Positions 23,853 through 42,124 of a stretch of DNA of 51,530 nucleotides are shown piece after piece. The stretch is from contig CAMBIK010000001.1 in assembly GCA_945867435.1 (NCBI GenBank), positions 1 through 51,530 on the forward strand. Reading direction: 5' to 3'. The notes beneath the pieces were generated by a model that did not search any database, was not told the origin of the DNA, and was given only the letters and a program-made list of their open reading frames with translations. Position 1 is the stretch's first letter. Each line of letters begins with the position of its first letter. The translations under genes and the position numbers were made by a program. The stretch is from Klebsiella pneumoniae (lineage in GTDB: Bacteria; Myxococcota_A; UBA796; SXON01).

Positions 23853-23896
23853 CCAGCTCTCGCACGCCGCGGCAGGAACGCGCCCGAAACCGCAGG

Positions 23897-23975: not shown

Positions 23976-23980
23976 AGGTC

Positions 23981-24859: not shown

Positions 24860-24863
24860 ACGG

Positions 24864-26246: not shown

Positions 26247-26261
26247 GGCCGCGAGTGTATC

Positions 26262-26300
26262 GTGTCGGGGGGGAAAGGGCTCGCCGCCCTCTCCCCCTCT
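26262..26300 (+). repeat. REP-like element, copy D (hairpin part only)
   Basis: 'GGGGGGGAAAGGGCTCGCCGCCCTCTCCCCC'. The tail diverges from copies A-C. Confidence 0.65.
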
Positions 26301-26394
26301 CCGCCCTCACCCATGGGACACCATGGGTGACCATGCCGGTTCCGCGCGTTGCCCATCCCCAGACCCCCGACATTGCGCTACGCTCGCCCGGCTC

Positions 26395-28182
26395 ATGCAA
26401 AAGCCCGTCTCGCTCACCCTCATCCCCTCCCCTCCTCAGGCTCAGCGGATCGGCCGAAACGCCGCCTTCGCCGAAGCAGGGGCGAAGCGTGACCGCTACA
26501 CGCTGCCCGACCAGCTCGCCAGCGAAAGCCCGGTCGGCTACCGAACGCGCCCCAGCTTGACGGCCGAGGAAGCCCGGCTCACCTCGGGGCTGTTCTCCCT
26601 GGAGCCGCCGACGGCCTTCGTGCCCGGCACCCCTGTCACCGAGGGCGAGCTGTTCGAAGAAGCTGCGCTCGGCGTGCTCACCTCACGACAGTCCACGAAC
26701 TTCCGCGGGCATCGCCAGATCACGCTCGGACCGGCCGACTCCGCTCAGCTTGTGCCGCTGTTGGAGCAGCTCGAGGGCTGCGAACGCCCGGTACTTGGAG
26801 GCGCCGCCTACACGCATGTGGGCTTCTCACGCCCGTACCGCACCCCCTTCACCTTCCTGTTGACCTTCGTCGGGCACAAGACCGTGGCCTCGCTCTTCAC
26901 GGTCCCGAAGCGCGCATGGCAGAAGAAGTTCCATCACGCCGACGACATCCCGACCGTGGGCTTCCTCCAACACCTCCACGTCGGGATCTGGGCCGACTCC
27001 ATCGAGCGGGCCGCGGTGATCGCTTCCAACGGCACTCGCCAAGCCAACGTGTGGATGCAACCGTTCTCCGGTCCGGCATGGCAGGAAAAGAACGCCCAAG
27101 TCCTCAGCAAGATTGAGGCGCTGGTCGGCCTGACCGGGGCAGAGCGTCGCGAGGGATGGCGGGTGTGTTTGATCGCCGAAGTCGGCACGGTCGCGACACC
27201 CCTTGACCTGGGAAAACCCCTGTGCCGTAAGCTGGGCGCCACGCTGATGAGCCTCCGCTCGGAACGCATCCAACCCGGGGTCAACGCCGAGGAAAAGGCA
27301 CCCAACCCTTACCAGTCGCGCCAGGACATGGACGTGCCGGATGAACTGGTGGAGATGGCGGGCCGCGCCGCGTACAACGCGTTCTGTCATTGGACGGGCA
27401 TAGACCGGGAGGCGGCCAAGGCCCTCCTGCTCCTGGAGCGGATCGACGTTCTCACGGACGGCGGAAAGGAGCGCCTGCGGTCCGTGCGGCGGGACTTGGA
27501 AGACATCACCGACCAGCTCGTCTCCGCGCTACCCCTCTGGGCCGACCTGCCCCTGCTGCGAAGCCTGAGCACCAACGCGGCCCGCGGGAAAAAGGCGTTT
27601 GCCCTCGCGGGACAGCGGATCTACGTCGGCGGACTGTCCCGCGCCGAGGTGCAGGCGGCCGGACTCGACTTCGCGCATGCCGTTCGCGCCTTCGGGGCTG
27701 CCTCCGCTCGTTCGGCTCTGGTCTGCGAGCTATCCGGGTGCATCGACATTCCAGCGGGCTGCGACCTGTTGGCCGGGGTTTGCCTCATGGCCGGTCCGGT
27801 GAACCAGAACGACGTGGGTAAGCAGTTTCATGGTTACGCCGATTTGTTGGCTGGAGCCTTTCCAGGTCGCGACCCAACCTCGCTCCTTGTGTGGACCTTG
27901 AAAGCCAAGACGGTGGCTGACCCCATCGGCAACGAAGAGCAACTGATGAACGCATCGCGCAAGGGTGCCCTCGTGGATCTCCGCAGCGGGCCGCCAGATA
28001 TTGTGGGCCTCCTTCGCCACGGAAAGGTGGAGCCGATGCGGTCCCGCGAGGGGCGTTCAAACAGCGAACGAGCGTTCCACGATGTCGGCAACTTCGTGAC
28101 GGATGCCGCGGGCAAGCAAATCCCGGGAAACTGCGGTTCCGCTTGGCCAATGGCCTGGCGGCAGGAGCACCCGTGGGGATAA
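26395..28182 (+). CDS. Hypothetical protein (about 595 aa)
   Basis: Start 'MQKPVSL' is the first ATG clear of the divergent upstream gene and REP copy D. Protein-like composition, no recognisable motif. Confidence 0.55.
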   Translation: MQKPVSLTLIPSPPQAQRIGRNAAFAEAGAKRDRYTLPDQLASESPVGYRTRPSLTAEEARLTSGLFSLEPPTAFVPGTPVTEGELFEEAALGVLTSRQSTNFRGHRQITLGPADSAQLVPLLEQLEGCERPVLGGAAYTHVGFSRPYRTPFTFLLTFVGHKTVASLFTVPKRAWQKKFHHADDIPTVGFLQHLHVGIWADSIERAAVIASNGTRQANVWMQPFSGPAWQEKNAQVLSKIEALVGLTGAERREGWRVCLIAEVGTVATPLDLGKPLCRKLGATLMSLRSERIQPGVNAEEKAPNPYQSRQDMDVPDELVEMAGRAAYNAFCHWTGIDREAAKALLLLERIDVLTDGGKERLRSVRRDLEDITDQLVSALPLWADLPLLRSLSTNAARGKKAFALAGQRIYVGGLSRAEVQAAGLDFAHAVRAFGAASARSALVCELSGCIDIPAGCDLLAGVCLMAGPVNQNDVGKQFHGYADLLAGAFPGRDPTSLLVWTLKAKTVADPIGNEEQLMNASRKGALVDLRSGPPDIVGLLRHGKVEPMRSREGRSNSERAFHDVGNFVTDAAGKQIPGNCGSAWPMAWRQEHPWG

Positions 28183-29012
28183 CCCTGGAATTCGACACGC
28201 CGCCTGCCATTTCGCTCGCCACCGTTGCGATGAAGCGTGGCCGGCACCACGCACCTGGCGAGCCCTTCCCCGCCATCGAAGCCACCGCACGCAGGCTTGT
28301 CCCCGCGCCTGCGGACTACGCCCGCGTGTGCGGTTTCCCCGGAACCGAGGTGCTGCCTGTCACATATTGCGATGCTTTGGCGCGGGGGCTTCAGCTCGCG
28401 GTGCTGACGCATGCGGCCTTCCCGCTCCGCTTGTTCGGGATCATTCACACCGAACAGGTGATCGAGCAACGGCGAGCCATCTGCGCCCGCGAAGCGCTGT
28501 CGGGTCGCGCTTGGGTGGAGGGTCCACGGGTGGCTCGAAACGGCGGTGAGTTCGACCTGCATACGGTCATTTCAGTCGACGGCGAGGAGGTGTGGCACGG
28601 CGTAACCACCATCCTGTCGCGCGAGCTGCCCGGAGATGGCGTGAAGCGTCCCCGCCAGCAGGAGCCGAGTTGGAAGGCTTCCCGCTCGGTGATCTGGCCG
28701 TTAGCTGCCGACCTTGGCCGGCGGTACGCAGCGGTGACCGGGGATCACAACCCCATCCACCTCTGGCCAGTGACCGCGCGACTGTTCGGCTTCAAACGCC
28801 CCATCGCGCACGGATGGTGGGCACTTGCGCGGAGCCTCGCCGAGATGGACCAGGATGTGCCCGCAGCATGTCGGATCCACGCGCGCTTCTCCAAGCCGAT
28901 GCCGATGCCTGGCACCCTGCATTTCGCTTCTGGACCGCTCCCCGCGGGCGGCCACGCGTTTGCGCTACGCCGCCGCGAGCTGTGCCTTAGTGGCGAGGTT
29001 CACGGCCGCTGA
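28143..29012 (+). CDS. MaoC-like (R)-hydratase/dehydratase, double hot-dog
   Basis: Hydratase motif 'YAAVTGDHNPIHLWPVTARLFG'. Start at 28143 (ATG) or 28173 (GTG), either of which overlaps the end of the upstream gene. Confidence 0.75.
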   Translation: MANGLAAGAPVGITLEFDTPPAISLATVAMKRGRHHAPGEPFPAIEATARRLVPAPADYARVCGFPGTEVLPVTYCDALARGLQLAVLTHAAFPLRLFGIIHTEQVIEQRRAICAREALSGRAWVEGPRVARNGGEFDLHTVISVDGEEVWHGVTTILSRELPGDGVKRPRQQEPSWKASRSVIWPLAADLGRRYAAVTGDHNPIHLWPVTARLFGFKRPIAHGWWALARSLAEMDQDVPAACRIHARFSKPMPMPGTLHFASGPLPAGGHAFALRRRELCLSGEVHGR

Positions 29013-29230
29013 ATCGCCGGCGCCGCAGCAAGAGCAACGCGCCCAGGCCCACGGCCATCGGTGCAGCCGCCTGACCCGGCGTTGAGCAGTCGCAGCCCCC
29101 TTCCAGGCTGATCTCGTCCTTGGGGATCTCGGTGTCGCCGTTGTCGCCCGGACCCGGGTCTTCCTCCCCCGACGTGTCGCCGCCCGTGTCGCCGTTGGCA
29201 TCCACGCCGTTGCAGTCCTGGTCGATTGAT
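28987..29230 (-). pseudogene. 3' remnant of a MYXO-CTERM protein gene
   Basis: 'DQDCNGVDANGDTGGDTSGEEDPGPGDNGD...EGGCDCSTPGQAAAPMAVGLGALLLLRRRR'. There is no plausible N-terminus because the upstream frame runs into the IS fragment. Confidence 0.5.
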
Positions 29231-29724
29231 TTTGATCCGCTTTCGTGGACACTTCCTGAGAGGCATGCGAGACAGCAGACATGGAAATCAAGAGCACACT
29301 CAAGCAGAAGCGGAAGCCGGGCCGTCAACGCCGGTAGTATACCGATGCGTTCAAGGCCGGCGCGGTCCGACTGGTGGTCGTCGAGGGACGGACGATTGCG
29401 CAGGTGGCCAGGGACCTCGACCTGACGCGGTCGGCGCTCGATGGCTGGGTCACCCAGTCCAAAGCGGACGCCCTTCGCGAAAGAGAATGCGTGAGGTTCG
29501 CATTCATCGACGTGGAGAGGGCAACGTGGCCGGTGACCGTGCTGTGCCGGTCGCTGTTGGTGTCCACCGCCGGTTTCCACGCGTGGCGGGACCGCCCGGA
29601 AGCGGCACACGACGCCGAGGATCGACGCCTCGGCGTGCTGGTCTGGGAGGCGCACAAGCGGAGCCGCGAGACCTACGGCAGCCCCCGCGTGCACGCCGAG
29701 CTGCGCGGTACGACGGGTGCGTGA
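29227..29724 (+). mobile_element. Decayed IS3-family fragment (orfA plus start of orfB, truncated)
   Basis: Candidate IRL 'TGATTTTGATCCGCTTTCGTGGACAC'. 'MEIKSTLKQKRKPGRQRR*YTDAFKAGAVRLVVVEGRTIAQVARDLDLTRSALDGWV' has an in-frame TAG at 29335. It continues 'WPVTVLCRSLLVSTAGFHAWRDRPEA...YGSPRVHAELRG' and then breaks off. There is no DDE domain. Confidence 0.75.
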
Positions 29725-29989
29725 CCGTGAGGTCCCGCAGCGTGACGGACTCGCCGTTATCGACCGAAAACCCGTTGGTTCAGGTGCTGCCTGCTGTGAG
29801 CGTGGTCGTGGCCATGCTCGCGCCTACGATCGTGAGGTTCTTGCCACCGGTGTCCAGGCACTCCGTCCATGTGCCAGCGGCCACGCTGATCGTGTCGCCA
29901 CTGGAGGCCGTCGCGATGGCCGCCCCCACGGCGGTGAACGGCCCCGAGGAACTTACGACGAGCGTTGACGCGAGAGGAGCATCAGTTCT
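29722..29989 (-). pseudogene. 5' remnant of a right-handed beta-helix protein gene
   Basis: My own minus-strand translation gives 'FTAVGAAIATASSGDTISVAAGTWTECLDTGGKNLTIVGASMATTTLTAGSTCTNGFSVDNGESVTLRDLTV', a typical beta-helix N-terminus. There is no in-frame start, and it is absent from the ORF track. Confidence 0.45.
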
Positions 29990-30136
29990 CTCTGGTGAGC
30001 CCCGCTTATGTCGATCTGGGCGTCCCTGCTCGGAGAGACTACGGCATGACGCCGCAGCGGGCTGCGCGCGACCTGTTGAAGAGGGTTCGACCGGTTCGGG
30101 AGCGGAACGGCGCGCGGGTGGTTAGTCGGAGACCAT

Positions 30137-30213
30137 CGGGGCGTAGCTCAGCCTGGTAGAGCGCTTGGTTTGGGACCAAGAAGTCGCAAGTTCGAATCCT
30201 GTCGCCCCGACCA
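30137..30213 (+). tRNA. tRNA-Pro (anticodon TGG)
   Basis: Folded by hand. Acceptor stem CGGGGCG/CGCCCCG; D arm GCTC/GAGC; anticodon stem CTTGG/CCAAG with loop TTTGGGA; T loop TTCGAAT; encoded CCA. 77 nt. The T stem GCAAG/CCTGT has one A-C mismatch. Confidence 0.9.
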
Positions 30214-31776
30214 TTCCGAACGGTGGCCGTTCTGATCATCAGAATTGCCACCGTTCTCCTTTTCTGACTTCGGCCATTGTGCCAATACATCGAAGGGTTT
30301 CCGGAAGGTCACCGAGAGCTGCCCATCGGTAAAAGTAGAGTTCAAGCAGAGCACTTCCAACAAACGGCGCTGTTGGAGGGGCTCCCGCGAAGAAAGTAGG
30401 TCGTAGGCGCGGTTCGCGAGTTCCAGCACCAAAATGGCCGTATCGAGGTTCTGCGAGCTGACGCGGGCGAGCCGCTGGATCTCCTCGGCGGCCTCGCCGC
30501 GCTGCTGTTCCCACTCGGCCCGCTTGGCGTTGAAGAAGTCGTTGTCGATGCGCCCTTCGAGCTTGTCCTCGTAGGCGGCGTTCACCAGCTTGCCGAGGCG
30601 GTCCATGCGGGCCGTGGCGGCGGCGACGCGGGCGGACACGTCCAGCTCGATCTCCTGCCGGGAGCCGGTGAGGGCCTTCTTGACGGCGGCGACCAGGTGC
30701 TCGGGCATCGTGAGGACCGAGACCTCGCGGAGCCACTGCGCCGACAGCTTGGCCTCGGGCATCATCCCGGTGCCGCAGTACCGGGCGCAGTGGTAGTAGA
30801 TGTACTTCTCCTTCTTGATCTGCGCGGTGATCGCGGCCCCGCAGTGCCCGCAGGTGATCATGCCGGTGTAGGCGAAGGTGAGTTCGCGGGCGCGCGTGTA
30901 GGGGTGCCCGTCAAGCCGAGCCTGCACGCGCTCGAAGACCTCCCAGCGGATGATCGCGGGGTCTTTCCCGGCGTAGACGGCTCCGCCCCAATGGAACTGC
31001 CCGGCGTACAGCGGGTTGCGGAGCAGCGAGTGGATCACGCTCTTGCCGAGGGTGCCGCCGTTGCGGCCCTTCAGACCCGCCTTCAGCGCGTAGGCGGCGA
31101 GCGTCTCGACACTGTGGTCCCCCCGGTCGTACAGCTCGAACAGGTTGCGGACGAGCAGGGCTTTCTCGGGGTCCACGACGAGCTGGCTCTTGCCGTTCTC
31201 GCGCCGGTTCAGGTAGCCGATGGGTGCGGCACCGGGGTAGTGCCCCTCCTCGCACTTCTGGACCATCCCCTTCTTGACCTCCTCCGAGAGATTGTCCACG
31301 TAGTTCTTGGCCATGAGCACTTTTATCCCGTGGATGAACTTCTCCGAGGACCGCGACTCGTCCGAGAGCACAATGCCCTCCTTGACGAAGTGGATGTCCA
31401 CCTTCATCTCGTCGAGAGCGACCCAATCCTTGAGGTTTCGGTAGAGTCGGTCGGTCTTTTCCACCAGGACGACCGGAGCCTTGACGCCCTTCTTCTTGAG
31501 CATCAGGAGCAGCCGCGTGAACGCGATCCGCCCGGTCTTCTTCGCCGTCTCCACGTCGATGAACTCCTCCAGAATGGCGAAGCCGTTGTCGGCGGCGTAC
31601 TTCTTGAGGATCGCCTGCTGTGCGGGGATGGAGAAGCCCTCGCGCTCCTGCTCGCGCGAGGACACGCGGGCGTAGAGGACCGCCTGCTTCATCGAGGGGG
31701 CCAGCGCGGCGGCGGCGGCCTTTGCGGCGGGTGATCGGCCCGGTCGGGCGGTTCGGCGGGTGGGCGAGATCGACAT
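30148..31776 (-). CDS. Large serine recombinase (integrase)
   Basis: 'AVLYARVSSREQEREGFSIPAQ' resolvase catalytic motif, recombinase domain, zinc ribbon 'CGHCGAAIT...YYHCARYC', and a coiled-coil C-terminus. Start 'MSISPT' at 31776, or 'MKQAV' at 31692. The last 22 codons are antisense to the tRNA. Confidence 0.9.
   Translation of the reverse strand: MSISPTRRTARPGRSPAAKAAAAALAPSMKQAVLYARVSSREQEREGFSIPAQQAILKKYAADNGFAILEEFIDVETAKKTGRIAFTRLLLMLKKKGVKAPVVLVEKTDRLYRNLKDWVALDEMKVDIHFVKEGIVLSDESRSSEKFIHGIKVLMAKNYVDNLSEEVKKGMVQKCEEGHYPGAAPIGYLNRRENGKSQLVVDPEKALLVRNLFELYDRGDHSVETLAAYALKAGLKGRNGGTLGKSVIHSLLRNPLYAGQFHWGGAVYAGKDPAIIRWEVFERVQARLDGHPYTRARELTFAYTGMITCGHCGAAITAQIKKEKYIYYHCARYCGTGMMPEAKLSAQWLREVSVLTMPEHLVAAVKKALTGSRQEIELDVSARVAAATARMDRLGKLVNAAYEDKLEGRIDNDFFNAKRAEWEQQRGEAAEEIQRLARVSSQNLDTAILVLELANRAYDLLSSREPLQQRRLLEVLCLNSTFTDGQLSVTFRKPFDVLAQWPKSEKENGGNSDDQNGHRSEWSGRQDSNLRLLGPKPSALPG
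30218..30256 (+). terminator. Stem-loop plus T-rich tract just 3' of tRNA-Pro (or recombinase att half-sites)
   Basis: 'GAACGGTGGC' (30218..30227) and 'GCCACCGTTC' (30247..30256) form a perfect 10-bp inverted repeat with a 19-nt spacer centred on TGATCA, followed by 'TCCTTTTCT'. Confidence 0.45.
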
Positions 31777-31947
31777 GGGGCTCCGGGGAGGGGTCAGCGG
31801 GGCCGGAGCTTGACGTAATTCCTGGCCGCCGTCCAGCCCAACCGCAGACGACCTGAACAGATGTAACGTGCTGCGGTTCGGCGCGTTATGGCGGGTGCCC
31901 TCGCGCGCGCCGTCCCGGCGTGCCCCCTCGTCCCGCCGGGATTTGCA

Positions 31948-34386
31948 ATGCCCACCTTCGCCGCCGATGATCCACTCGCCACCCCGCAGCGACTCGACGC
32001 TGAACCCGACCCCCACTTCTGGGAGGACGGGCTCGGGTTTCTTGGCTTCCGGCGTTCGATGAACGAGATCGCGCGGGCACCGGATGTGCTCTTCCACCGG
32101 CTTTTCGGGGACGGGGAAAACGCCGAGGCGGCCCGCGACGTGCTTCGTTCGTTCGGGGACTCCACTCCGGTGAGGGCGAACCTGATGTTGGCGGCGGCCT
32201 ACGTCGCGAAGATGGACACCCCCGCGATCGTTGACGCCGCGCGGATCGCGCTTGGCGAGGACGCGGTGGCGGAACCCGACTCGCCGGGCCGACGCGACCG
32301 TGGCGCGCTGGCGGCTCGAATCGCTGCGGCCAGTCTCGGGCACCTGTTCTCCGCCCGGGCGCTGGACGACTGGCGACTGCGGAAGCGTGTCACTATCCGG
32401 GCGACCGGTCAACATCGCGTTCTGACGGCCCCTATCCCGGATCTGCCCTGGCGGAAGTTGGCCGCCGAGGCGTTGCGGGCGATGGGCGCACAGCGGGGCA
32501 AGCTCGCTCTTCGCTCGGTGGTCGCCCGACCGTGGGCGGAGGACGTGCTCCTCGGGTTCCGTGACCGCGGCGGAGCGACGTCATCGCGGGACGACGATGA
32601 CCACTTTCAACCTGGGCACAAAGAGGATTGGGTCTACGTTCGCTTCTTCGAGAAGATGGACCGCGCCCACGTCTCGGCCTTCGACCCGGAGCGCGCGCGG
32701 GTGCTGGCGGGAAGGCTCGCAACGGCACTGTGGGACGCGACGGCGACCTACGAGTGGGCACGCGACCCGCTCACACCGGATCGGATGATGGAGTTCCACG
32801 ACCGGCTCGTCAACCCGTCGGACAAGACGTTCCGGCTCCTTGAGGTCGTCGCCGAGTTGCCGGGGCTGTGGCGTCGGCCTGTGCTGAAGCTCGGCAACCA
32901 CGGCCAGGAGCGCGTGGAGCCGGCGCTCGTGGAGCTGTGGTCCGCGAAAGTGGGGTTCGCGAGGGACTACGCGACCGTCCTCCGGGTGAAGATGGGGTTC
33001 AGCCACGCCGGCCACGTCTACCGGATCGAGCTTCACTACCCCGAGGATCCTTTCGCGTCGGAGCTTCCGCTGGCCTACACGTCGCGCGGCGTGAGCCCCG
33101 AGGTCGGGCAGGCCCTTCAGAGCCTGTTCGAGTCGGAGCTGGGTGTCTGCATCAACCCCCGCAGTCTCGGTGACGCGACCGGGCGCAGCTCGCCGTACGC
33201 CAAGCGCCCGTCGGAAATGGCCGAGCGGCACTGGACGCGCCTCCTCGGGAGCACGGTTGACAACCCGGCGAATTGGGAGTTGGACGAGCTGAAACGCCTC
33301 GCGACCCAAGGGCTCATCAGCATGGAGGAGCGAGCGGCGTTCCGGTGCGGGAGCCCCGCCATCCTGGCGCGGCCCGAGAATGCCCCGGAAGGATGCACCG
33401 GAGTCGTGGTCGGTGAGGTCGGCTCCGTTCGAGGGGGGGCACCCTTCGCGCAGCCGGCCGGACTCCGCCTCTCTTGCAGCCGCTGCTCTGCGATTTGGCC
33501 GTCCGACCAGGCGCACCTTCCCTGGTTTCACCAGATTGTCGTCCATGTGGATGAGCGTGCCGTCTGGCCCGTGGTCCGCGACGCCATCTTGCCCGGGATC
33601 GAGGGTGCGAACCGCCGGGTGCCGGGAGTTCTGGCGTGGCACGATGACGAGGGACAACCTTGCGTGGTGATCTCCGCGGACACCGCGCCCGAGGAATGGC
33701 GCGAGATCCGGCATGTGATCGGGAGACGGGCGGCGTGGATCACCACGGGCGCCGTGGCTGCGGCGCGCTACGGCGACAGGGGCGTCATGCTCGCACGCGC
33801 CCTCGCGAGCCCCGGCGGCGGCGCACTTCGCCGGGCGCTGGCCGCCGGCCCCGTTCCTGCGGACGCCGGAGCCGGCGGGGGGGCTGACATCTTACCCCCG
33901 CCACCCTACCTGCATCGTGGCACTCCGACGGGCTTGCCGGTCGTCCACATCCAGCGCGGCGACGACCGCGTGTACCTCGGCGATCAGGCGGTCGTAGAGG
34001 AGGACGAACATAGGTTGTTCCTATTCTTCGCCGTGCTCCAGTACGCGGAGGAGGCACGGGCGCGCGACCCAGCGGAGCCAGAGTACACCACGGGCGAGGT
34101 GCTCGCCGCCTATATCAACGACACGATCCGCGAGGTTCGGAGCGACCCCTCCATCGAAGGCGATGTCTCGGGGAGGAACATCCACGATTGGGTGGTGCGC
34201 GCGCGCAAGGTCATCGACGAACGCGCCAGACCGACGGATCAGGGGGCGTTGGTGATCGAATCGCCGGGCACCCAGCCGGGGTATCGCGTAGGACCGAGGT
34301 ACAAGTTGCAACATTTTTCGCTGCGTGACGAGGTGCGTCGGTACAAGGGTGCTCTCCGCGCCTCATCGAAGGGGTCGAAAAGGTAG
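31948..34386 (+). CDS. Large orphan protein (about 813 aa) with a winged-helix-like C-terminus
   Basis: Start 'MPTFAADDP'. No catalytic motif recognised. The C-terminal 'EYTTGEVLAAYIN...SGRNIHDWVVRARKVIDER...LVIESPGTQPGYRV' resembles the OmpR/PhoB-type wHTH layout. Confidence 0.6.
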   Translation: MPTFAADDPLATPQRLDAEPDPHFWEDGLGFLGFRRSMNEIARAPDVLFHRLFGDGENAEAARDVLRSFGDSTPVRANLMLAAAYVAKMDTPAIVDAARIALGEDAVAEPDSPGRRDRGALAARIAAASLGHLFSARALDDWRLRKRVTIRATGQHRVLTAPIPDLPWRKLAAEALRAMGAQRGKLALRSVVARPWAEDVLLGFRDRGGATSSRDDDDHFQPGHKEDWVYVRFFEKMDRAHVSAFDPERARVLAGRLATALWDATATYEWARDPLTPDRMMEFHDRLVNPSDKTFRLLEVVAELPGLWRRPVLKLGNHGQERVEPALVELWSAKVGFARDYATVLRVKMGFSHAGHVYRIELHYPEDPFASELPLAYTSRGVSPEVGQALQSLFESELGVCINPRSLGDATGRSSPYAKRPSEMAERHWTRLLGSTVDNPANWELDELKRLATQGLISMEERAAFRCGSPAILARPENAPEGCTGVVVGEVGSVRGGAPFAQPAGLRLSCSRCSAIWPSDQAHLPWFHQIVVHVDERAVWPVVRDAILPGIEGANRRVPGVLAWHDDEGQPCVVISADTAPEEWREIRHVIGRRAAWITTGAVAAARYGDRGVMLARALASPGGGALRRALAAGPVPADAGAGGGADILPPPPYLHRGTPTGLPVVHIQRGDDRVYLGDQAVVEEDEHRLFLFFAVLQYAEEARARDPAEPEYTTGEVLAAYINDTIREVRSDPSIEGDVSGRNIHDWVVRARKVIDERARPTDQGALVIESPGTQPGYRVGPRYKLQHFSLRDEVRRYKGALRASSKGSKR

Positions 34387-34493
34387 GGTCCACCGTGGCG
34401 CGGGTGCGCACTCCGGGCCGACGCGAGGGGCCCGGTGCGTTGACGCCCCGTTCCATACAAGGTGGCGTTTGATGGGCTGAATATCAGTGCGGC

Positions 34494-34697
34494 GTGAAGC
34501 GACGAACCGCACCGCTGTATGTCGAGGCTGACGCCAAGCAGGCGCTCCGCGAAGCGTTCCAGCCGTTGTACGACGAGCCGCTCACCGACCACCACGTCGG
34601 GGAGATCTCCGACAACCTCCGCCGCTACTTCGCGATCCTCGCGGAGTGGGATGCGGAGGACAAGCTGCGCGCCGTGGGCGCGAAGGCGGGACCATGA
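34494..34697 (+). CDS. Small hypothetical protein (67 aa)
   Basis: GTG start, balanced helical-looking sequence. Its stop overlaps the next ATG (ATGA). Confidence 0.4.
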   Translation: MKRRTAPLYVEADAKQALREAFQPLYDEPLTDHHVGEISDNLRRYFAILAEWDAEDKLRAVGAKAGP

Positions 34698-34894
34698 CGG
34701 AGACGAAGCCAGTGGCGTCCATTCGGGACGCCGCTCACGACGCGCGCGACGGCAAGGCCACGTCGCCGAAGGGTCCAGGGGCACCGATGCCCCGCCACCC
34801 CACGCGCCCACCGAAGCTGGACCGCCGGGGCCTGAACATTCACCAGACGCCACGGCGGCACGGCCCGGTGAGTCGCCGCCGAGGTCGGCGGTGA
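34694..34894 (+). CDS. Small basic hypothetical protein (66 aa), doubtful
   Basis: ATGA coupling upstream, and its TGA lies 2 nt before the next ATG. However, the sequence is Pro/Arg-rich and low-complexity. Confidence 0.3.
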   Translation: MTETKPVASIRDAAHDARDGKATSPKGPGAPMPRHPTRPPKLDRRGLNIHQTPRRHGPVSRRRGRR

Positions 34895-34896
34895 GG

Positions 34897-35781
34897 ATGT
34901 TCACGCTCACGGTCTTGCCTGCGCCGACGATCCGGCCGGGGGGGGATCCGAACGACGCCGCCAGCGTCGTCTGGCCTGCGGCGGGGGAAAGCAGGGCACT
35001 CGACGCGCGCGAGCTGGTCGCCTTCTTCCTCGTTCGACACCTCGCCCCGGGCAAGTTCGCCTGTCCGTACTTCCTCGTGGGCGCGTTTGCCGACGGCGTG
35101 CGGCGCAACTCGGCGTTCCTCTTTGCGTCGGTGGTCGCGCTCGACGTGGAGAAGGGGCCGACCACACAGGAGGCCCATGCGCTGTTCCGGGGCTGGGCGC
35201 ACATCGTCTACACCACCTGGTCCCATCGGGCCGACGCACACCGCTTTCGGGTCGTGTTCCCGCTCGCGCGCGACGTGAGCGCGGACGAGTACAAGCGGCT
35301 CTGGTCGCGACTGGCCGCCATGCTCGGCACCGGGGCGGACGCGCAGACGAAGGATCTCGCTCGCGCGCTGTTCCTACCAGCGCAGCGGCCGGACGGCGGA
35401 CGTTCGGCCGCGAAAGCATGGGAAGACGCACCTTTCCTCGACCCTGACGCGGTTCTGGCGGAAGTGCCGCCCTCGCCCCGACGGCCCCTCAGCCCGCCGC
35501 GTCCTCCTGTTCGCCTCCCGCCGGGGATCGCCCGGCGCGAGGCCCAGGAGCGCCTCAAGACCGATCCCGCGTGTCGGCGGCGCGCCGCCGAGTACCTCGA
35601 CGCCACGATCCGGGGCAACCGCGCCGAGGGGGTGCTCTGCCCACGATGCGAGCGCACGTCCGTCTGGTTCTGGATCGAGCCGGGGAGGATGAGCATCGCG
35701 AGCTGCAACCACCGGAACTCCTGCGGGTGGTGGGGCCACCTCGACGAGCTGCTCGACGCGCACGGGGGCAGCGATGTCTGA
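34897..35781 (+). CDS. AEP-type primase-polymerase-like protein with C-terminal zinc finger
   Basis: Motif order is 'VVALDVEKG' (acidic motif I), 'TTWSHRADAHRFRVVFPL' (His motif), 'DAQTKDLARALFLPA' (motif III-like), then 'CPRCERTS...CNHRNSC'. This is inference from motif layout only. GTG at 34891 is an alternative start. Confidence 0.5.
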   Translation: MFTLTVLPAPTIRPGGDPNDAASVVWPAAGESRALDARELVAFFLVRHLAPGKFACPYFLVGAFADGVRRNSAFLFASVVALDVEKGPTTQEAHALFRGWAHIVYTTWSHRADAHRFRVVFPLARDVSADEYKRLWSRLAAMLGTGADAQTKDLARALFLPAQRPDGGRSAAKAWEDAPFLDPDAVLAEVPPSPRRPLSPPRPPVRLPPGIARREAQERLKTDPACRRRAAEYLDATIRGNRAEGVLCPRCERTSVWFWIEPGRMSIASCNHRNSCGWWGHLDELLDAHGGSDV

Positions 35782-37936
35782 CTGGCAAGACGATGTCTGC
35801 GGCGTCAGCGAGGAGCCACCGCCCGATCCCGCCAAAGGGTGGGAGCTGCTGGCGCGACTCCGCGAGCTCGCGGGCGGCGACGGCGCGCCCGCCACGGTGA
35901 TCGAGGCGGTCCAGGTCGCGACGGCCGACCGCGCCACGGTCGCCGGGCTCGGTGCCTGCCACCGCGTGGAGCGGGCGCGGTTCGATGGGCTGACCCTTGC
36001 GCTGGGGAGTGTTCGCGGGCTGAAGGCAACCGCCGCCGTGCTCGCCCGCACGGCGAAAGAGGAGGGCGAGCGCCAGGAGAAGGCCGAGCGATCGACGCGC
36101 GCGCGCCGAGCCGCAGCACCCGCCAGCTCGAAGCTGGTCACGAGCCTGGAGCGGTGTCTGCGCGGCTACTCGCTCTCGACCGACCTTGTCGCACCCCCTG
36201 GCTACGACATCGACGATTGCGGAGTTCGCAAGCGCGTCGTCAACGAGGACACCGGCGAGGAGACGATCATCCCCGTCGCGGCCCGGCCGTTCGTCACCGT
36301 CGCCCGCTGCGTGAACATCCAGGACCACACCGTGGTCAGCCTGCTCGCGTGGCTGAAGGTCGGCGGCGGATGGGGCCAGCACACCGTTCCGCGCGTCACC
36401 GTCTCGGACGCTCGGGCGCTCGTCACGCTGGCGAACCTGGACGCGCCGGTCCACTCGAACAACGCCTCGGACTGCGTCACCTACATCGCAGCGTTTGAGG
36501 CGACCAACGCTGCCGTACTGCCGGAGGCGCTGGTCAGCCCGATCATGGGCTGGTGCGGCACCGATGCCGACCTGTCCTTCCTCTGGGGGCGGAACCAAGT
36601 CCGCGCGGACGGCGTCCACTCCAGCGGCTCCGTGGACGAGCTGCCGCCGTCTTCGTGGCGTGCCGGGCAGATCCACCTGCTGCCGAGCGACCCGGGCCTG
36701 CGCTCCGCCGCCGCCGGGTTCCACGCGGCGGGCTCGTGGGAGGGCTGGGTCGAGTGTGTCCGCGAGGTCACGCCCTACCCGCGCGTGATGCTCGCGATTT
36801 TCGCGGCGATGGTCCCGCCGCTCATGCGCTTCCTGCCCGCGTTGTCCAACTTCGTGCTGGACTTCAGCGGGGTCACCAGCCAGGGCAAGACGACGGCACT
36901 TCGCGCCGCCGCCTCGGTGTGGGGGAGCGCCGACGAGCGCGGCGACGGCATCCTGCACACCTGGGACAACACCCACGTCTTCGCCGAGCGCATCGCCGCC
37001 CTCTGCAACTACCTGCCTTTGTTCCTCGACGACACCAAGCGCGCGCGAAAGCGCGAGGACGTCGGCCGCGCCGTCTACAACCACGCGAGCGGCGTCGGCC
37101 GGGGGCGGGGCTCGCTCACGTCTGTCCAGCGGACGACGCGCACCCACAGCGTGCTGCTCTCCACAGGCGAGGAGGCGATCACGTCGTTCACCAACGACGG
37201 CGGCACCCGCGCCCGGTGCATCTGCCTCTGGGGGTCGCCGCTCGGCGGCGCGGACACCGCCACGGTCGAGGTGGTTCGGAGGCTCAACGCCGGGATCATG
37301 GCCCACTATGGGCACCTCGGCCCCACGCTCGTTCAGAAGCTCGCCAGCGACGCCGAGGGCCGGGATGATGTGCGCCGGGTCTACGAAACCGAGATGGAGG
37401 CGTGGACGAAGCTGGCCAACGGCAACGGGGTGGCGAGCCGCGCCGCCCAGTACGTCGCCGCGCTCGCCGTCGCCGAGCAGCTGTTCTACGCCATCACCGG
37501 GCTTCCCCGGCCGGCGACCCCGGCGGTCAACGAGGCGTGGGAGGCCGTACTGAAGGGGTCCGTCGAGGCCGACCGCGCCACGGACGCGCTCCGCCAGGTG
37601 ATTTCGTGGGCGACGGGCCAGCAGGCGCGTTTCCACGGGCGCATGGAGGCCGAGGGCACCGACTCGGGCTCGGCACCCGCCGCCGGCTGGCTTGGCGCGT
37701 GGACACGCGCAGAAAACTGGCGGTACCTCGCCGTGCTCCCGACCGAGCTGCGCGCGTTCCTCGAACGGCAGAAGTTCGACGCCGACGCCGCGCTCCGCAC
37801 CTGGGGCGACCGCGACTGGCTCCTCCGCGATGGGCGCCACCTGACTCGCAAAGTGACGATCGGTGAGCGAAAGGACCGTTGTATCTGCATCTCCCGCGAG
37901 GCGTGCGACACCGTCTCCGAGGCCGACGATGCGTAG
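35774..37936 (+). CDS. DUF927-type P-loop helicase/NTPase (replicative, SF3-like)
   Basis: 'FSGVTSQGKTTALRAAASVWGS...HTWDNTHVFAERIAALCNYLPLFLDDTKRA' gives Walker A and B with DUF927-like context. It overlaps the prim-pol stop by 8 nt. Confidence 0.75.
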   Translation: MSDWQDDVCGVSEEPPPDPAKGWELLARLRELAGGDGAPATVIEAVQVATADRATVAGLGACHRVERARFDGLTLALGSVRGLKATAAVLARTAKEEGERQEKAERSTRARRAAAPASSKLVTSLERCLRGYSLSTDLVAPPGYDIDDCGVRKRVVNEDTGEETIIPVAARPFVTVARCVNIQDHTVVSLLAWLKVGGGWGQHTVPRVTVSDARALVTLANLDAPVHSNNASDCVTYIAAFEATNAAVLPEALVSPIMGWCGTDADLSFLWGRNQVRADGVHSSGSVDELPPSSWRAGQIHLLPSDPGLRSAAAGFHAAGSWEGWVECVREVTPYPRVMLAIFAAMVPPLMRFLPALSNFVLDFSGVTSQGKTTALRAAASVWGSADERGDGILHTWDNTHVFAERIAALCNYLPLFLDDTKRARKREDVGRAVYNHASGVGRGRGSLTSVQRTTRTHSVLLSTGEEAITSFTNDGGTRARCICLWGSPLGGADTATVEVVRRLNAGIMAHYGHLGPTLVQKLASDAEGRDDVRRVYETEMEAWTKLANGNGVASRAAQYVAALAVAEQLFYAITGLPRPATPAVNEAWEAVLKGSVEADRATDALRQVISWATGQQARFHGRMEAEGTDSGSAPAAGWLGAWTRAENWRYLAVLPTELRAFLERQKFDADAALRTWGDRDWLLRDGRHLTRKVTIGERKDRCICISREACDTVSEADDA

Positions 37937-37946
37937 CGCGGCCCGA

Positions 37947-38239
37947 TGTGGGGACCGGACCCCCTCGAAACCCACCTCGGTGGGGGCGTACTTCTCAGCT
38001 GTGAAGGCGGACAAACACCCCGCGTCCCCACAATCCCCACATTTTCGCGCGACACCCACCTTTAGAGAGAATTGCTTTTCTTCTCGCATCGCACGCGGCG
38101 CAGAACGATCGATTCGCGCGCACGTAAGGGCATGTGTTGCACGGGTGTGGGGACTGTGGGGACCTCCCCTATTTCGGTTCTATGAACCTATCTATTTTCG
38201 TCCCCACTTCTGTGGGGACCGGTGGGGATTGTCCCCACA
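37947..38239. promoter_or_regulatory. Iteron array with AT-rich patches: candidate replication origin
   Basis: TGTGGGGAC occurs at 37947, 38146, 38155 and 38211. GGTGGGGA occurs at 38221. Inverted GTCCCCAC(A) occurs at 38024, 38200 and 38231, and ATCCCCACA at 38033. AT-rich 'CCTATTTCGGTTCTATGAACCTATCTATTTTCG' spans 38168..38200. Confidence 0.55.
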
Positions 38240-38307
38240 AGGCTCCGGCGGGCGCGTCGTCGCCCAGCGGTCCCCAACGTTGCTTCCCTGATCCCTCCGG
38301 AGCCTCC

Positions 38308-38796
38308 ATGCAGAACATCCTCGCCTTCTTCCGCCTTTCTCGCCCCGCCGTCTCGACGAGCCCCATCCCGGCTTGCCCCCGTCCGACTGCCGCCGACCTC
38401 GGCCTTCATGTCATCGCCGCCAACGGCCCGTTCGGCGTTGAGCCGGATGTGCCCCTGGTGACGGCCACCGAGCTGTGGGAGGCGTTCGGCACCAACGAGG
38501 CGGACGCCGAGCGCCGGTTCGCACATCGGCCGATCTACGTCGCTGGGGCCGTGGACCGCGTGACGCGCGAAGGGGCCGGGTACGCCGTCCGGCTTTCGGT
38601 CAGCGGCATGGCGTTCGACACCGTGCGCTGCCACACCAGCGACCATCGGCGCTTCAACCTCACCGATCTGCGCCGTGGTCAGCTCGTCGTCGTCGTCGGC
38701 CGGCGCGCGTTCCGGCACGGCGGGCGTGTCGTCGTGGACGACGCCCTCGTCGTCCACGAGGATCTCACCTCCCTGCTCCCCTGGGGCCGCCGGTGA
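38308..38796 (+). CDS. Hypothetical protein, possible OB-fold (tRNA_anti-like)
   Basis: Start 'MQNILAFF' preceded by GGAG. 'RPIYVAGAVDRVTREGAGYAVRLSVSG...VRCHTSD...LRRGQLVVVVGRRAF..GRVVVDDALV' resembles the tRNA_anti-like OB pattern. Confidence 0.45.
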   Translation: MQNILAFFRLSRPAVSTSPIPACPRPTAADLGLHVIAANGPFGVEPDVPLVTATELWEAFGTNEADAERRFAHRPIYVAGAVDRVTREGAGYAVRLSVSGMAFDTVRCHTSDHRRFNLTDLRRGQLVVVVGRRAFRHGGRVVVDDALVVHEDLTSLLPWGRR

Positions 38797-39341
38797 GCGC
38801 GGCGTGGACGGCGAAGGCCGTGAAGAACCTGATGCCGCTGTCGGTCGCGACCGACCTCGCCGCGGCCCTTCGCGAGTGGGCCTACTCGGGCAAGAGCACG
38901 GACTACGGCCAGCCCGAGGAGACGTGCCAGCTCTGCGACCACGAGGACCTCCGCTACCACTTCGAGATCGCGAACAAGCAGACCGGGCACCGGCTCTGGG
39001 TCGGATCGAAGTGCATCCTGCGCTTCGAGATCGCCGGCTACGAACAGGTGAAGGTGGACCTCGCGAAGCTGATCCGCGATGCCGAAGAGCGGCGGGTGCG
39101 GGAGCTGCTGGTCACCGTGGCCGAGCGCACCGACGGCCGGGTGGACCTCGTGGCGCTCTGGGAGGACCGGGGCGGCCTGCCGCCGCGCGAGGCCCTCCGG
39201 CTCGCGAAGGCGTGCTGGCGGCTGAAGCTCACCCCCACCTCGTTCCCGAAGGTGCGCCTCCAGCGCGCGAAGGACCGTGCCGAGCTGCGCCGGATGACGG
39301 CGTGGGAGCGTGAGCGCATCGAGCCGTGGATCGCGGCGTGA
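38793..39341 (+). CDS. Hypothetical protein with 'CQLCDHEDLRYHFEI...VGSKCILRF' motif
   Basis: GTGA overlap with the upstream stop. Protein-like composition. Cys-x2-Cys plus a downstream Cys suggests a metal site. Confidence 0.5.
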   Translation: MSAAWTAKAVKNLMPLSVATDLAAALREWAYSGKSTDYGQPEETCQLCDHEDLRYHFEIANKQTGHRLWVGSKCILRFEIAGYEQVKVDLAKLIRDAEERRVRELLVTVAERTDGRVDLVALWEDRGGLPPREALRLAKACWRLKLTPTSFPKVRLQRAKDRAELRRMTAWERERIEPWIAA

Positions 39342-39546
39342 CCCGTGATGGCCCGGATTCCGGCTCGCGGTTTCAATCTCGGCATGGCGGAATCTGGAAT
39401 ATTCCATGGAATCACGCCTATGATTCCGTCATCGGCATCACCGATCCCGGAGCGATGGCATCGCTTGTCATCACCCCATCGGCGCCCGGCGCTCGTTGAG
39501 CGTTGAGCCCCCGCCTTTGGATGGCCGGTCGCCCAGGGCCAGGGGT

Positions 39547-40035
39547 TCAGCCCGCCTCAACCCCGAGCTCGCCGAAGCTCCCCAGCGGCACCGCCTTCCG
39601 CATCCCCGGCTTCAGCCTCACCGCGTACTCGGCGACGTGCCCGCCGCTGCTCCCGACGCGCACCCTCGGCCCGGCGGCGTCCCCGGTGGCGATCTCGGCC
39701 GCGAGCTGCGGCGTCACCACGTCCATCGCGGCGATCGGAACGACGAGCACGAGGGCAGAGTGCAGGTTGTAGAATCCGAACTCGCCAAAAAGCTTGATCG
39801 GGATGGTGAGCCCTTCACCGTCGGGGATGGCGAGCGGGTACACGTCCACGAAGCCGCCCAGGATCGGGCGCTGGAACTTCGGCCCGATCATCAGCGACGA
39901 GAGCACGTCGGCGAGGTCCACGCCGAGCAGCGCCTTCAGGCCGTCGAACGCGAAGGGCCCGAGCCGCACCGCGGTGGACGGCACGGTCAGGTTGACCCGC
40001 ATGGCGGCGGGATCGGCGCGCAGGGCGGCGTTCAC
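39547..40035 (-). CDS. Hypothetical protein (162 aa)
   Basis: GTG start overlapping the upstream stop (GTGA). Balanced composition, whereas the overlapping plus-strand ORF 39496..40356 is Arg/Pro/Ser-rich. Confidence 0.5.
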   Translation of the reverse strand: MNAALRADPAAMRVNLTVPSTAVRLGPFAFDGLKALLGVDLADVLSSLMIGPKFQRPILGGFVDVYPLAIPDGEGLTIPIKLFGEFGFYNLHSALVLVVPIAAMDVVTPQLAAEIATGDAAGPRVRVGSSGGHVAEYAVRLKPGMRKAVPLGSFGELGVEAG

Positions 40036-40571
40036 GGGACCACCACGGTGCGGGCAGGGAGCACCTCGGGAACGAGCGCGTCACCCTCGCCGGTGCCGTG
40101 GTCCTCCTCCTCGACGATCTCATCGGCGTCCACGGCGTCAGCCAGCTCGCTGTCCTCGTCATCCGCCGGGTCGTCGTCACCCCGCACGGCGTCGCCGCCG
40201 CCCGCCGCGCCGGACTCGAGGAGGTCCAGCATCTCCTCCTGGCCCTTCGCGATGACGACGAGCGCCTTTCGGATGCCGGGGAGGTGTCGCAGGGCACCGA
40301 GGGCCTTCGAGTCGAGCGCCGGGAGCCCGGCCTCGATGCGGCGAAGGCACCCGTAGATGTCGTCGAGCGCCTGGACCTGGCGGTAGGCGAGGTGCGCCTG
40401 GTGGAACGCCTGCTCGTCGGGGGAGAGGGCGCAGAACGCCTCCACCGACTCGACGAAGCTGTCTTCCGACGCGGTGTCGAAGCTCTTGGCGTAGAAGGTA
40501 CGAAGAACCTGGGCCCACTCGGGCGTGGTCAGGGTGCGGGCACGGGGCAGACGGGTAGCGGTCTCCGGCAT
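40032..40571 (-). CDS. Hypothetical protein with acidic C-terminal tract
   Basis: 'MPETATRL...' followed by 'GDDDPADDEDSELADAVDADEIVEEEDHGTGEGD'. Confidence 0.55.
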   Translation of the reverse strand: MPETATRLPRARTLTTPEWAQVLRTFYAKSFDTASEDSFVESVEAFCALSPDEQAFHQAHLAYRQVQALDDIYGCLRRIEAGLPALDSKALGALRHLPGIRKALVVIAKGQEEMLDLLESGAAGGGDAVRGDDDPADDEDSELADAVDADEIVEEEDHGTGEGDALVPEVLPARTVVVP

Positions 40572-40604
40572 CGGAGCCTCCTTTTTGGGTGAACGTGGGT
40601 GGGA

Positions 40605-41630
40605 TCAGGCCGCGGCGGACTCGTCCTTCGGCGCGGGGTCGTTGGCGGGGGCCTCGCCGGCCTGGGCGGCCATGAGGAGCAGCGCGGCCAGCTCCTTGCG
40701 CGTCTTCTCGTCGCGCAGGATCTTCTTGACCGCGGGGTTCTTCATCGCTTCGAGCAGCTCAGGGGAGGCGTTGACGATCTCGGCCAGCTCGATCATCTCG
40801 GGGGCCATGCCGAACTTCGCCGTCGCGAGCACGCGGCCGAGGCCGCCCAATTCCGCGATGAACTGCTTGCCCAGCTCCTCGCGGACGCGGCCCTCGCCGT
40901 CGTCACCGCGCTGGCTGGACTCGGCCTCGAACACCCCGATCTTGAGGTTCGTCAGTTGGCCGACGACGTTCTCGTTCGACCTCTGCATCCGCGCGAGCTG
41001 CCCGTGGGTGCTGCTGATGTGCGCGCCCTGGAGGTTCGTGATGTGCTGGTAGCTGGACTGCACCAAGCCGACGAAGTTCTGGTACGCCTCGCCCAGCGCG
41101 CGCCAGGTGCGCGGATCGGGGGAGGTGTCCGGGTACGGCCCCGGCAACGGGACCGTCGGCGCGGGGACCGTGACCGGCGGCTCCTCCCACTCGGTGTTCG
41201 TGCAGAGGAAGCGCGAGCTGTAGATGACCTTGTCGCCCTTGCCCTTCCACAAGTTCACCTTGAACTTGCCCTCGCGCTGGCCGACCATGTTCTGGTCGGC
41301 CATGTGCTTGATCCAGCGGATCGCGGCATCCGCGAGGACCGCGTAGGTCACGCCGTTGTCCATCCGGGCGAGGTCGCCGAGCGTCTCGGACTCGTCGCCG
41401 TCGCCGTTCTCGTCATCGTCGTCCCCCTCCTCCGGCTGGTCGTCGTCGTCCTCCACGTCGGGCTCGATGAACGCCGTGAGGTCCACGCCGCTGAAGCAGA
41501 TGCGCCCGAGCTGGGGGTAGCCGCTCCGGTCCAGCACCTCGTGAACGGTGATGTGGGTGATCTCGGTACACCGCTGCCGGATCACGGCGTCGATGGTGTC
41601 CAGCTTCTCGAATTGAAGTTCGTCGATCAT
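40605..41630 (-). CDS. Hypothetical protein (341 aa) with an internal poly-acidic tract
   Basis: First gene of the leftward operon. 'EPDVEDDDDQPEEGDDDDENGDGDESE' is encoded at about 41385..41465. Confidence 0.6.
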   Translation of the reverse strand: MIDELQFEKLDTIDAVIRQRCTEITHITVHEVLDRSGYPQLGRICFSGVDLTAFIEPDVEDDDDQPEEGDDDDENGDGDESETLGDLARMDNGVTYAVLADAAIRWIKHMADQNMVGQREGKFKVNLWKGKGDKVIYSSRFLCTNTEWEEPPVTVPAPTVPLPGPYPDTSPDPRTWRALGEAYQNFVGLVQSSYQHITNLQGAHISSTHGQLARMQRSNENVVGQLTNLKIGVFEAESSQRGDDGEGRVREELGKQFIAELGGLGRVLATAKFGMAPEMIELAEIVNASPELLEAMKNPAVKKILRDEKTRKELAALLLMAAQAGEAPANDPAPKDESAAA

Positions 41631-41654
41631 GGCGGCTCTCGGGCGAAGGGGGTG

Positions 41655-41671
41655 TGCTCAAATGTTGAGCA
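41655..41671. promoter_or_regulatory. Operator-like palindrome in the divergent control region
   Basis: 'TGCTCAA-ATG-TTGAGCA' is a perfect 7-bp inverted repeat 25 nt upstream of the 41630 start, followed by the direct repeat ATGTTGA/ATGTTGA containing 'TTGACC'. Confidence 0.4.
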
Positions 41672-42124
41672 TGTTGACCCTCTGAAGGTATCGCAAGAGG
41701 CTGGAAATGGGGTGAATTTCGGGCTTGGAATGCCTACCGCGCCTACCGCACGCGCTGCGGTTTTAGAACCGCGCTCCCTACCGCCGCCGTCGCCGGCCAA
41801 ACCGCCGGTCGAACCGCGCGCTCGACGGCCAAACCGCCCCCGCTGAGCGCCCGACCGCGACCCCCGAGGCCCCTACCGCTGGCTACCGCCGAGGGTGATT
41901 CTGGCTGCCGCGTACAACCGCGACACGAGACGCCAGAACCGCATCCGAGCAGGGGTCCATGCGGTTTCCGGCGGTCGGAGCGACGCGACTAAATCCGCTT
42001 TCCAGCACCGCTATCGGCTGCATAGTGGTCCTTGTCAGCCGGGCTCCCCGGTGACCCGAATCCCCCCGGCGGCCCCCGCCGGTCCCCCTCCATCCGGCCC
42101 CGCCGGCTCCCCTCCGAGGCAGCA

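Follow-up and report, generated by a model that had tools for sequence, protein, structure and literature searches.

The stretch considered here (hereafter the window) is the whole of contig CAMBIK010000001.1, 51,530 nucleotides or 51.5 kb, from a 3.79-Mb metagenome-assembled genome (MAG) of 301 contigs that is 76% complete. From a tRNA-Pro gene rightwards it carries an island with a large serine recombinase, and within this island an array of short repeats in both orientations (37947–38239) lies directly downstream of a gene encoding a DUF927 helicase. Judged from its sequence and from related elements, the array is most likely the vegetative replication origin of the island, an iteron origin of the type known from Staphylococcus aureus pathogenicity islands (SaPIs) and Cch helicases, read by the island's own self-loading helicase. 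A SaPI-type iteron origin 3′ of an initiator-helicase had been suggested in a first-pass annotation of the window. That suggestion is now backed by the position and layout of the array in about 30 relatives and in the staphylococcal element PT1028, by repeat words specific to each element and, in part, by covariation with the wing of the helicase; the AT-rich unwinding region that had been part of it fares less well. The array is very probably a new member of a known origin type, that is, a well-supported and fairly ordinary feature in an unusual host group.

The Repeat Array

The array comprises nine perfect GTGGGGA cores and two degenerate sites. Reading of the sequence and a motif search of the window place exact copies of the 9-mer TGTGGGGAC on the plus strand at 37947, 38146, 38155 and 38211, with a variant, GGTGGGGA, at 38221. 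Inverted copies are found at 38024, 38033 (TGTGGGGAT), 38200 (AGTGGGGAC) and 38231. Six of the nine sites are the exact TGTGGGGAC 9-mer, and all the coordinates first given for this nine-copy cluster are right. The two degenerate sites, at 37969–37975 (minus strand) and 37980–37986 (plus strand, GTGGGGG), were recognized by alignment with relatives. The first site begins 11 nt past the helicase stop codon (37934–37936), which confirms the placement of the array directly 3′ of that gene, and the array occupies most of the 371-bp gap between the helicase gene and the next gene, which encodes an OB-fold protein.

The distal left sites (37947–37986) are of mixed orientation and consist of a perfect site at 37947–37955 (plus strand) and the two degenerate ones; the corresponding offsets from the stop codon, 12, 33 and 44, are perfect sites in the relatives L001, L003 and L005. 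They are followed by an inner left tandem pair on the minus strand (38024–38041; 9-bp spacing, GTCCCCACA ATCCCCACA), a central spacer of ~105 bp (38042–38145) with 56% G+C against 67–70% around it, and an inner right tandem pair on the plus strand (38146–38163; 9-bp spacing, TGTGGGGAC TGTGGGGAC) that is 94% complementary to the left pair. The most AT-rich patch (38165–38203, 30–36% G+C) lies inside a second spacer of 45 bp, and a right cluster of four sites 10–11 bp apart completes the array (38200–38239, with 38200 on the minus, 38211 and 38221 on the plus, and 38231 on the minus strand). The AT-rich patches described in the first-pass annotation are genuine, with 36% G+C at 38168–38200 and 46% at 38041–38090 compared with 67% for the window as a whole; 33-bp stretches as AT-rich as 38168–38200 occur at only four places in the window. 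A weak terminator-like hairpin (38176–38188), with a T-run to 38198 (GGTTCTATGAACC TATCTATTTT), is also present inside the most AT-rich patch. Patch and hairpin are kept together in L005 only, and L001, L002 and L003 are GC-rich at this position.

No similar concentration of the word is found in the rest of the genome. Nine of the 16 GTGGGGA cores in the window fall within these 293 bp. The core occurs 616 times in the 3.79-Mb assembly (0.16 per kb, or an expected 0.048 per 293 bp), yet the array is its sole cluster, with elsewhere never three or more cores per 300 bp. The exact 9-mer occurs 21 times assembly-wide, six times in the array and otherwise as 15 singletons. A like density of the motif elsewhere in the genome had been named in advance as an observation that would count against an origin; because the array is the only cluster assembly-wide, this objection does not arise. 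A second, distant half-origin was also sought, and no other cluster of the word was found in the window or in the assembly, which is 76% complete and in which the island leaves the contig.

Conservation of the Array in Related Elements

Relatives of the helicase (~715 aa, identified by protein search) come mostly from lake, groundwater and marine metagenomes, in MAGs labelled Myxococcota or "uncultured proteobacterium". Five close loci, with helicases 71–95% identical, share the gene order recombinase, orphan, small open reading frame (ORF), primase-like gene, helicase, a gap of 370–405 bp, and OB-fold gene. The close loci have in common sites at offsets of 12, 33, 44, 89, 98, ~210, ~219, ~265, ~275, ~285 and ~296/305 from the stop codon, and when the five intergenic gaps are aligned the columns that do not vary cluster in the repeat cores, with the spacers diverged. 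GTGGGGC replaces GTGGGGA in all the copies of L003, including copies that have no inverted partner. Such a concerted change fits a protein-binding word that tracks a changed protein, and would not be required of a stem.

How far does the array extend beyond these close relatives? In an unbiased scan, the 350-bp segment with the most copies of any 7-mer was located for each locus, and this densest segment starts 100 bp or less from the helicase stop in about 30 related loci. These array-bearing elements, with helicases 35–95% identical, belong mostly to Myxococcota-type MAGs, and of the relatives above ~44% identity with sequence available downstream only one is not among them. A repeat array thus stands in the same place and layout in about 30 homologous elements, the comparison that the first-pass annotation had proposed as a check. 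The word differs by element (GTGGGGA, GTGGGGC, GCGGGGA, CCGGGGA, GTGGAGA or GTGGTGA, with still others in distant members). The common layout is one of distal sites, a "<<" pair 9 bp apart at ~90–100 nt, a gap, a ">>" pair 9 bp apart, ~45 bp, and three to four final sites in a "<>>" pattern with 10–11-bp spacing. The left pair at offsets ~89/98 is present in nearly every relative, and the central gap, always between "<" and ">" sites, measures 98–116 bp in most of them (range 69–175).

The same plan is seen in the SaPI-like element PT1028 of S. aureus (AY954948), whose helicase is 22% identical. Its word is GGGAACT and its sites lie at 4, 13, 24, 47, 91 and 100, then, beyond an AT-rich gap, at 196, 240 and 282; GGGAACT is also the repeat word of L111/L113. 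Such an array is missing 3′ of the helicase gene in most phage contigs whose helicases are ~34% identical.

Several MAGs each contain two or three copies of the element with one shared word, either CCGGGGA or GCGGGGA (L013, L019 and L021; L009 and L010; L016 and L022). The helicase frame is broken and the array retained in L021 and in L022, the latter from a long-read assembly. Such copies may be trans-activated by a co-resident copy, or may reflect assembly errors alone.

The Helicase and the Repeat Word

The helicase (720 aa; 35774–37936, plus strand) contains a DUF927 domain (Pfam, 1e-30) and a C-terminal HTH_56 (Cch) winged helix (5.5e-7). A profile of its family matches the PDB entries 8tch (1.3e-50) and 5dgk (1.6e-20). 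In an AlphaFold2 model (predicted local distance difference test, pLDDT, 84), helices span residues 656–679 and the beta hairpin of the winged helix residues 692–707 (strands 692–696 and 699–707). The top Foldseek matches of this model are SaPIbov1 Rep (template modelling score, TM, 0.74; 8tch) and then Cch of the staphylococcal cassette chromosome SCCmec (5dgk).

Repeat words were compared with helicase C-termini in 22 training loci and then in six further contigs, for which predictions were recorded before the DNA was fetched. These blind predictions were made because associations of this kind can stem from shared ancestry, and a primase control gave some too. Among the training loci, repeat position 7 (A or C) is fully predicted by one column, K700 versus R, and positions 1–2 by the R688 column (R, G or E); a G-to-A change at position 5 accompanies K693Q in one lineage only. 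Both blind predictions for K700R were right, P0009 and P0042 each having GTGGGGC. Arg is found at the K700 position in all four GTGGGGC lineages (L003/L025, L017, L123 and L128), two of which had been predicted blind, and the ~24 loci with Lys there have A at position 7 without exception. On a tree of the helicase core the word has switched at least seven times. K700 sits in the beta hairpin of the modelled winged helix, and in PriRep5 of SaPI5 the beta strands of the wing, and not the recognition helix, are reported to read iteron bases in the major groove (10.64898/2026.10.17.759575, a 2026 preprint). The covariation of K700R with C at position 7 is real support for the helicase as the probable reader of the repeats.

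The helicase of the window is 95% identical to that of L005. Over the last 500 residues the two differ at 24 positions, 11 of them, K700S included, in the final 50, and the fixed C at position 9 is lost from the L005 repeats. Counts of "full-information" columns, which are inflated by hypervariable columns and are also positive in the primase control, are not used as evidence.

A Probable Origin of the SaPI/Cch Type

Origins of SaPIs directly follow rep, which is itself preceded by a primase gene, and contain 6–12 short iterons; these are divided equally between the two sides of an AT-rich centre, with at least two per side opposed (PMC9371898; PMC7581432). The iterons are recognized by the winged helix of the Rep C-terminal domain, and the helicases self-load (PMC9371898; PMC7581432). 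The island agrees with this plan in its rep-adjacent site, winged-helix helicase, upstream primase and opposed iterons. In every respect that can be tested on sequence, except for the AT-rich centre, the array appears to be an origin of the SaPI/Cch type.

We infer from this how the array would be bound and melted, how two hexamers would load on it, and how the excised island would be primed and replicated. The island would be excised as a circle by its large serine recombinase, and the DUF927 helicase encoded just upstream of the array would act as its own initiator. The C-terminal winged helices of the hexamer would bind the 7–9-bp repeats, with the beta-hairpin wing reading the bases. Two oppositely oriented assemblies could then load on the pairs at 38024–38041 and 38146–38163 that bracket the ~105-bp spacer, the outer sites contributing cooperative contacts. 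The DNA between or beside the pairs would be bent and melted, allowing the helicase rings to self-load, after which the upstream primase-like protein would make the first primers and the host polymerase finish synthesis.

Several observations weigh against this reading. The lowest-GC patch (30–36%) lies outside the central spacer, in the second spacer, and the G+C fraction of the central spacer ranges among loci from 0.20 to 0.78; it is clearly AT-enriched in L047, L050, L054, L056 and L111, and 73–78% G+C in L002, L012, L015, L011 and L021. With GC-rich spacers in several relatives, an AT-rich DNA-unwinding element was rejected as a family feature and does not appear to be conserved. Of the earlier description of iterons flanking an AT-rich unwinding region, the patch itself therefore stands, but it is not conserved and the lowest-GC patch is not between the inverted pairs. 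One close relative, L125 (P0015), has an intact helicase gene and no array. The R688 code for positions 1–2 was right in two of four blind tests (P0014 and P0020) and wrong in the other two (P0009, E with GT; P0035, R with GC), and was therefore dropped as a simple code. In the control protein, the primase, two columns have convergent states for L003 and L017, and as this control is also positive the covariation evidence rests mainly on K700R. The identity of the helicase as the repeat-binding protein is likewise something that we infer. Word depth in the assembler contigs of the source lake metagenome is 5–9 over the island and 8–10 over the flank; since depth is not above that of the flank there is no sign of ongoing replication, as expected of an integrated, uninduced island.

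In L125 an Abi_2 gene is found 237 bp past the helicase stop (3651–3888; P0015 occurs on 12 contigs), and similarity to the sister loci L124 and L126 stops within ~10 nt past the stop. L125 looks like a variant in which the origin was lost or replaced.

Alternative Explanations

Could the repeats be operators instead, bound by the helicase or another island protein to control the OB-fold operon or to autoregulate the replication operon, with no origin function? Site arrays in both orientations are typical of operators too, an origin of this kind can at the same time serve for control, and the 370–405-bp gap that contains the array in the window and its closest relatives precedes a co-directional gene. 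However, the array follows the helicase whatever comes next, whether convergent minus-strand genes that need no promoter there (L015, L018 and L126) or a serine recombinase gene (L016 and L022), and a promoter scan of 37700–38500 finds no sigma-70-like promoter. The earlier alternative of operators for the promoter of the gene at 38308 is for these two reasons not upheld as a general function. Eleven sites over 290 bp with a fixed ~105-bp gap also fit the SaPI origin plan better, and a purely regulatory array is improbable, with a secondary regulatory role possible. A role in partition or packaging of the excised island, with the array as a centromere-like or a pac/cos-adjacent site for a partition protein or a small-terminase-like one, is more doubtful again. 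Sites of both kinds are also clusters of short repeats, and as most island genes have no recognizable function such a binder could hide among them, but no ParA/ParB, terminase or capsid family is detected in 30–51.5 kb. Moreover, array and helicase gene go together in elements as unlike as phage-like contigs and the staphylococcal island, and the repeat word covaries with a helicase residue.

The 94% complementarity of the pairs at 38024–38041 and 38146–38163 raises the question of whether they act as nucleic-acid structure, either a DNA hairpin or cruciform or a stem in a transcript, and not as protein-binding words. The single strand does fold (z = −2.95), and both arms have changed together in L003. 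Yet the partnerless sites (those at offsets 12 and 44 and the direct pair at 276/286) follow the same change in L003 and in every other word class, the interior of the "stem-loop" is not conserved and no Rfam family matches, all of which leaves structure a very remote prospect. Least probable of all are host DnaA boxes or sites of another host factor. The word TGTGGGGAC has TGTGG in common with TGTGGATAA, the complement of the DnaA box, and the resemblance is partial. The motif is nowhere else enriched in the assembly, and the word differs between elements of related hosts and even within one MAG (CAJBVW01, where L008 of the GTGGGGA clade occurs with L011, which has GCGGGGA). A conserved host protein would not explain such variation between elements, and the DnaA-box explanation is rejected on this ground.

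The Island Around the Array

The left junction of the island is a tRNA-Pro (TGG) gene at 30137–30213 on the plus strand (ARAGORN and Rfam), which is the single match in an Rfam scan of the whole window. The large serine recombinase (longest ORF 30148–32415, minus strand) has Resolvase, Recombinase and Zn_ribbon_recom domains (Pfam). The part conserved with relatives is residues 214–751, about 30160–31776, and matches to the NCBIfam models CcrB, XisF and CcrA are weak and far under cut-off. At its 3′ end the recombinase ORF runs antisense into tRNA-Pro, with an overlap of about 22 codons (30148–30215). The same convergent overlap is seen in L016 (tRNA at 10061–10137), and in L022 tRNA-Pro (8899–8975) lies ~400 bp beyond a recombinase-like ORF; in both of these the recombinase gene is placed after the origin. 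The sequences suggest that the element family integrates inside tRNA-Pro, with the island supplying part of the tRNA.

Between the recombinase and the helicase lie three further genes, all on the plus strand. An orphan protein of ~830 aa (31888–34386) has no Pfam, PHROG or NCBIfam match and is syntenic in relatives, with homologues at the same position in L001, L003, L005, L013, L017, L018 and L021. A small conserved ORF of 67 aa (34494–34697), upstream of the primase-like gene and also without a family match, corresponds to a gene of 67–71 aa at this position in L001, L002, L003 and L005. The primase-like protein (294 aa, 34897–35781) matches PHROG 9765 "DNA primase" (E 6.6e-25) as well as other primase and helicase-primase PHROGs; it has no Pfam or NCBIfam match, so that the assignment rests on PHROGs and synteny. 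Its gene overlaps the helicase start by 8 nt, and in almost every related locus an orthologue immediately precedes the helicase gene.

Beyond the array, the OB-fold (tRNA_anti-like) protein (38308–38796, plus strand; Pfam PF12869, 3.7e-10) is a possible single-stranded DNA-binding accessory of the replication module. L001, L002, L005 and the distant L127 have its gene in the corresponding place, and many other relatives lack it downstream. From here to the contig end the genes are mostly orphans. A trio of orphans without a family match (about 341, 180–199 and 162 aa; 39547–41630, minus strand, in the window) is kept with the replication module in either orientation, as in L001 (11445–13534) and L002 (13250–15727). 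Family scans of 30–51.5 kb recognized no capsid, terminase, ParA/ParB partition, conjugation or repressor family, and plasmid and phage databases contain only DUF927 relatives below 30% identity, with no near relative of the island.

Evidence of mobility comes from the assembler contigs of four metagenomes, which were compared over 22000–41999. A groundwater metagenome (run X2) contains a variant of the element, differing at about 1–3% of positions, from ~30190 rightwards at a depth of ~15, with the left chromosomal flank nearly absent (depth 0–2). The island therefore occurs in another genomic background. No credible circle junction was found in the metagenome assembler contigs. The cargo looks defense-related: the window has an Eco57I-like methyltransferase (49389–51530, cut by the contig end), and relatives carry a BrxC/PglY-like gene (L124, 4573–5160), Abi_2 (L125, 3888–4796), a kinase-helicase fusion (L003, 9883–13164) and a type I restriction subunit (L002, 1–2645).

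Significance

The array locates a probable cis-acting origin for an island family that is widespread in Myxococcota-type bacteria of lakes and groundwater and is almost wholly unannotated; many islands of the family carry defense-type cargo. To our knowledge, the SaPI/Cch origin design has been established experimentally only in staphylococci. Here the design recurs in a GC-rich phylum far removed from the staphylococci, its geometry almost unchanged, and geometry kept across phyla probably reflects the assembly of the helicase. The natural series of words paired with wing variants offers material for studying how self-loading helicases read DNA, and it is of added interest that a serine recombinase and a Cch-type replication module, an SCC-like pairing, occur together in Myxococcota.

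A broader proposal can be put forward only tentatively, and the sequences so far speak for it with less than even force. From Firmicutes to Myxococcota, Reps of the DUF927 family may share a single fixed origin template, on which the word is reprogrammed by a few wing residues, and the Myxococcota tRNA-Pro islands may be SCC-like replicative elements. If so, the A-to-C change at position 7 that goes with K700R would be the first readable rule, and origin specificity, cross-activation or incompatibility of co-resident islands would become predictable from sequence. Excision-coupled self-replication by a Cch-type helicase would then be a general lifestyle and not a staphylococcal peculiarity.

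Comparison With Known Systems

As in SCCmec, a large serine recombinase is found in the island alongside a Cch-type helicase with HTH_56, and a small accessory protein, here the OB-fold protein, follows the helicase. SCC elements encode a single-stranded DNA-binding protein. However, the CcrA/B/C and Cch1 models score far under cut-off in the island (88 against 900 bits and 42 against 700 bits), and integration is at tRNA-Pro and not at rlmH, so the island resembles SCC in architecture only. The origin of Cch2 is intergenic and follows directly on the helicase gene, and the C-terminal domain of that helicase binds it (PMC7581432). It has three direct 5-nt iterons, in contrast to the 11 sites in mirrored layout of the island. 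For Cch itself no defined origin was found in the SaPI and SCC origin literature cited here.

Modules have been described in which a DUF927 ATPase accompanies an archaeo-eukaryotic primase (AEP) and a winged helix at the C-terminus is predicted to recognize the origin, and elements with them enter tRNA genes by means of tyrosine or serine recombinases (Kazlauskas et al., 2018, PMC5862659). The island shares with these modules the primase, the DUF927 ATPase with winged helix and the tRNA integration. That survey classified proteins and left origins unmapped (PMC5862659). In the island the primase and the helicase have a gene each, and the proposed cis site has been located and traced through its relatives. 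Short initiator words beside a melted region are also a feature of the origins of theta plasmids (RepA, Pi and TrfA) and of SV40 large T and papillomavirus E1. In the plasmids the Rep protein is not itself a helicase and depends on DnaA, DnaB and DnaC, and the iterons are direct repeats of about 17–22 bp. In SV40 and E1 the initiator is the replicative helicase, as proposed for the island, and mirrored sites suggest two opposed assemblies (an analogy drawn in PMC7581432), but the viral origins are bound by an N-terminal domain and not by the C-terminal recognition proposed here.

Where does this leave the island with respect to the SaPIs themselves? No packaging, capsid-remodelling or Stl-type genes of the satellite gene set of SaPIs and other phage-inducible chromosomal islands (PICIs) were recognized in 30–51.5 kb. 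The island is more than 21 kb long and runs off the contig end, compared with about 10–15 kb for PICIs, and has a serine recombinase; it is therefore classed by its origin type and not as a PICI. The helicases of SaPIs and PT1028 are only about 19–22% identical to that of the island. The island, in a Myxococcota-type lake bacterium, also differs from SaPIs in its large serine recombinase at tRNA-Pro where they have a tyrosine integrase, in a G-rich repeat of 7–9 nt where they have a penta- or hexamer of an AT-rich genome, and in a central spacer whose AT enrichment is only mild and, in several relatives, absent. Nevertheless, the SaPI Rep replicons and PT1028 have the same order of primase, Rep helicase and then origin immediately past the stop, the same helicase fold, and about 9–12 short repeats in both orientations. 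In PT1028 the inner inverted pair lies at 91/100, against 89/98 in the island, and in both it is followed by a gap of ~90–105 bp and then by a forward pair.

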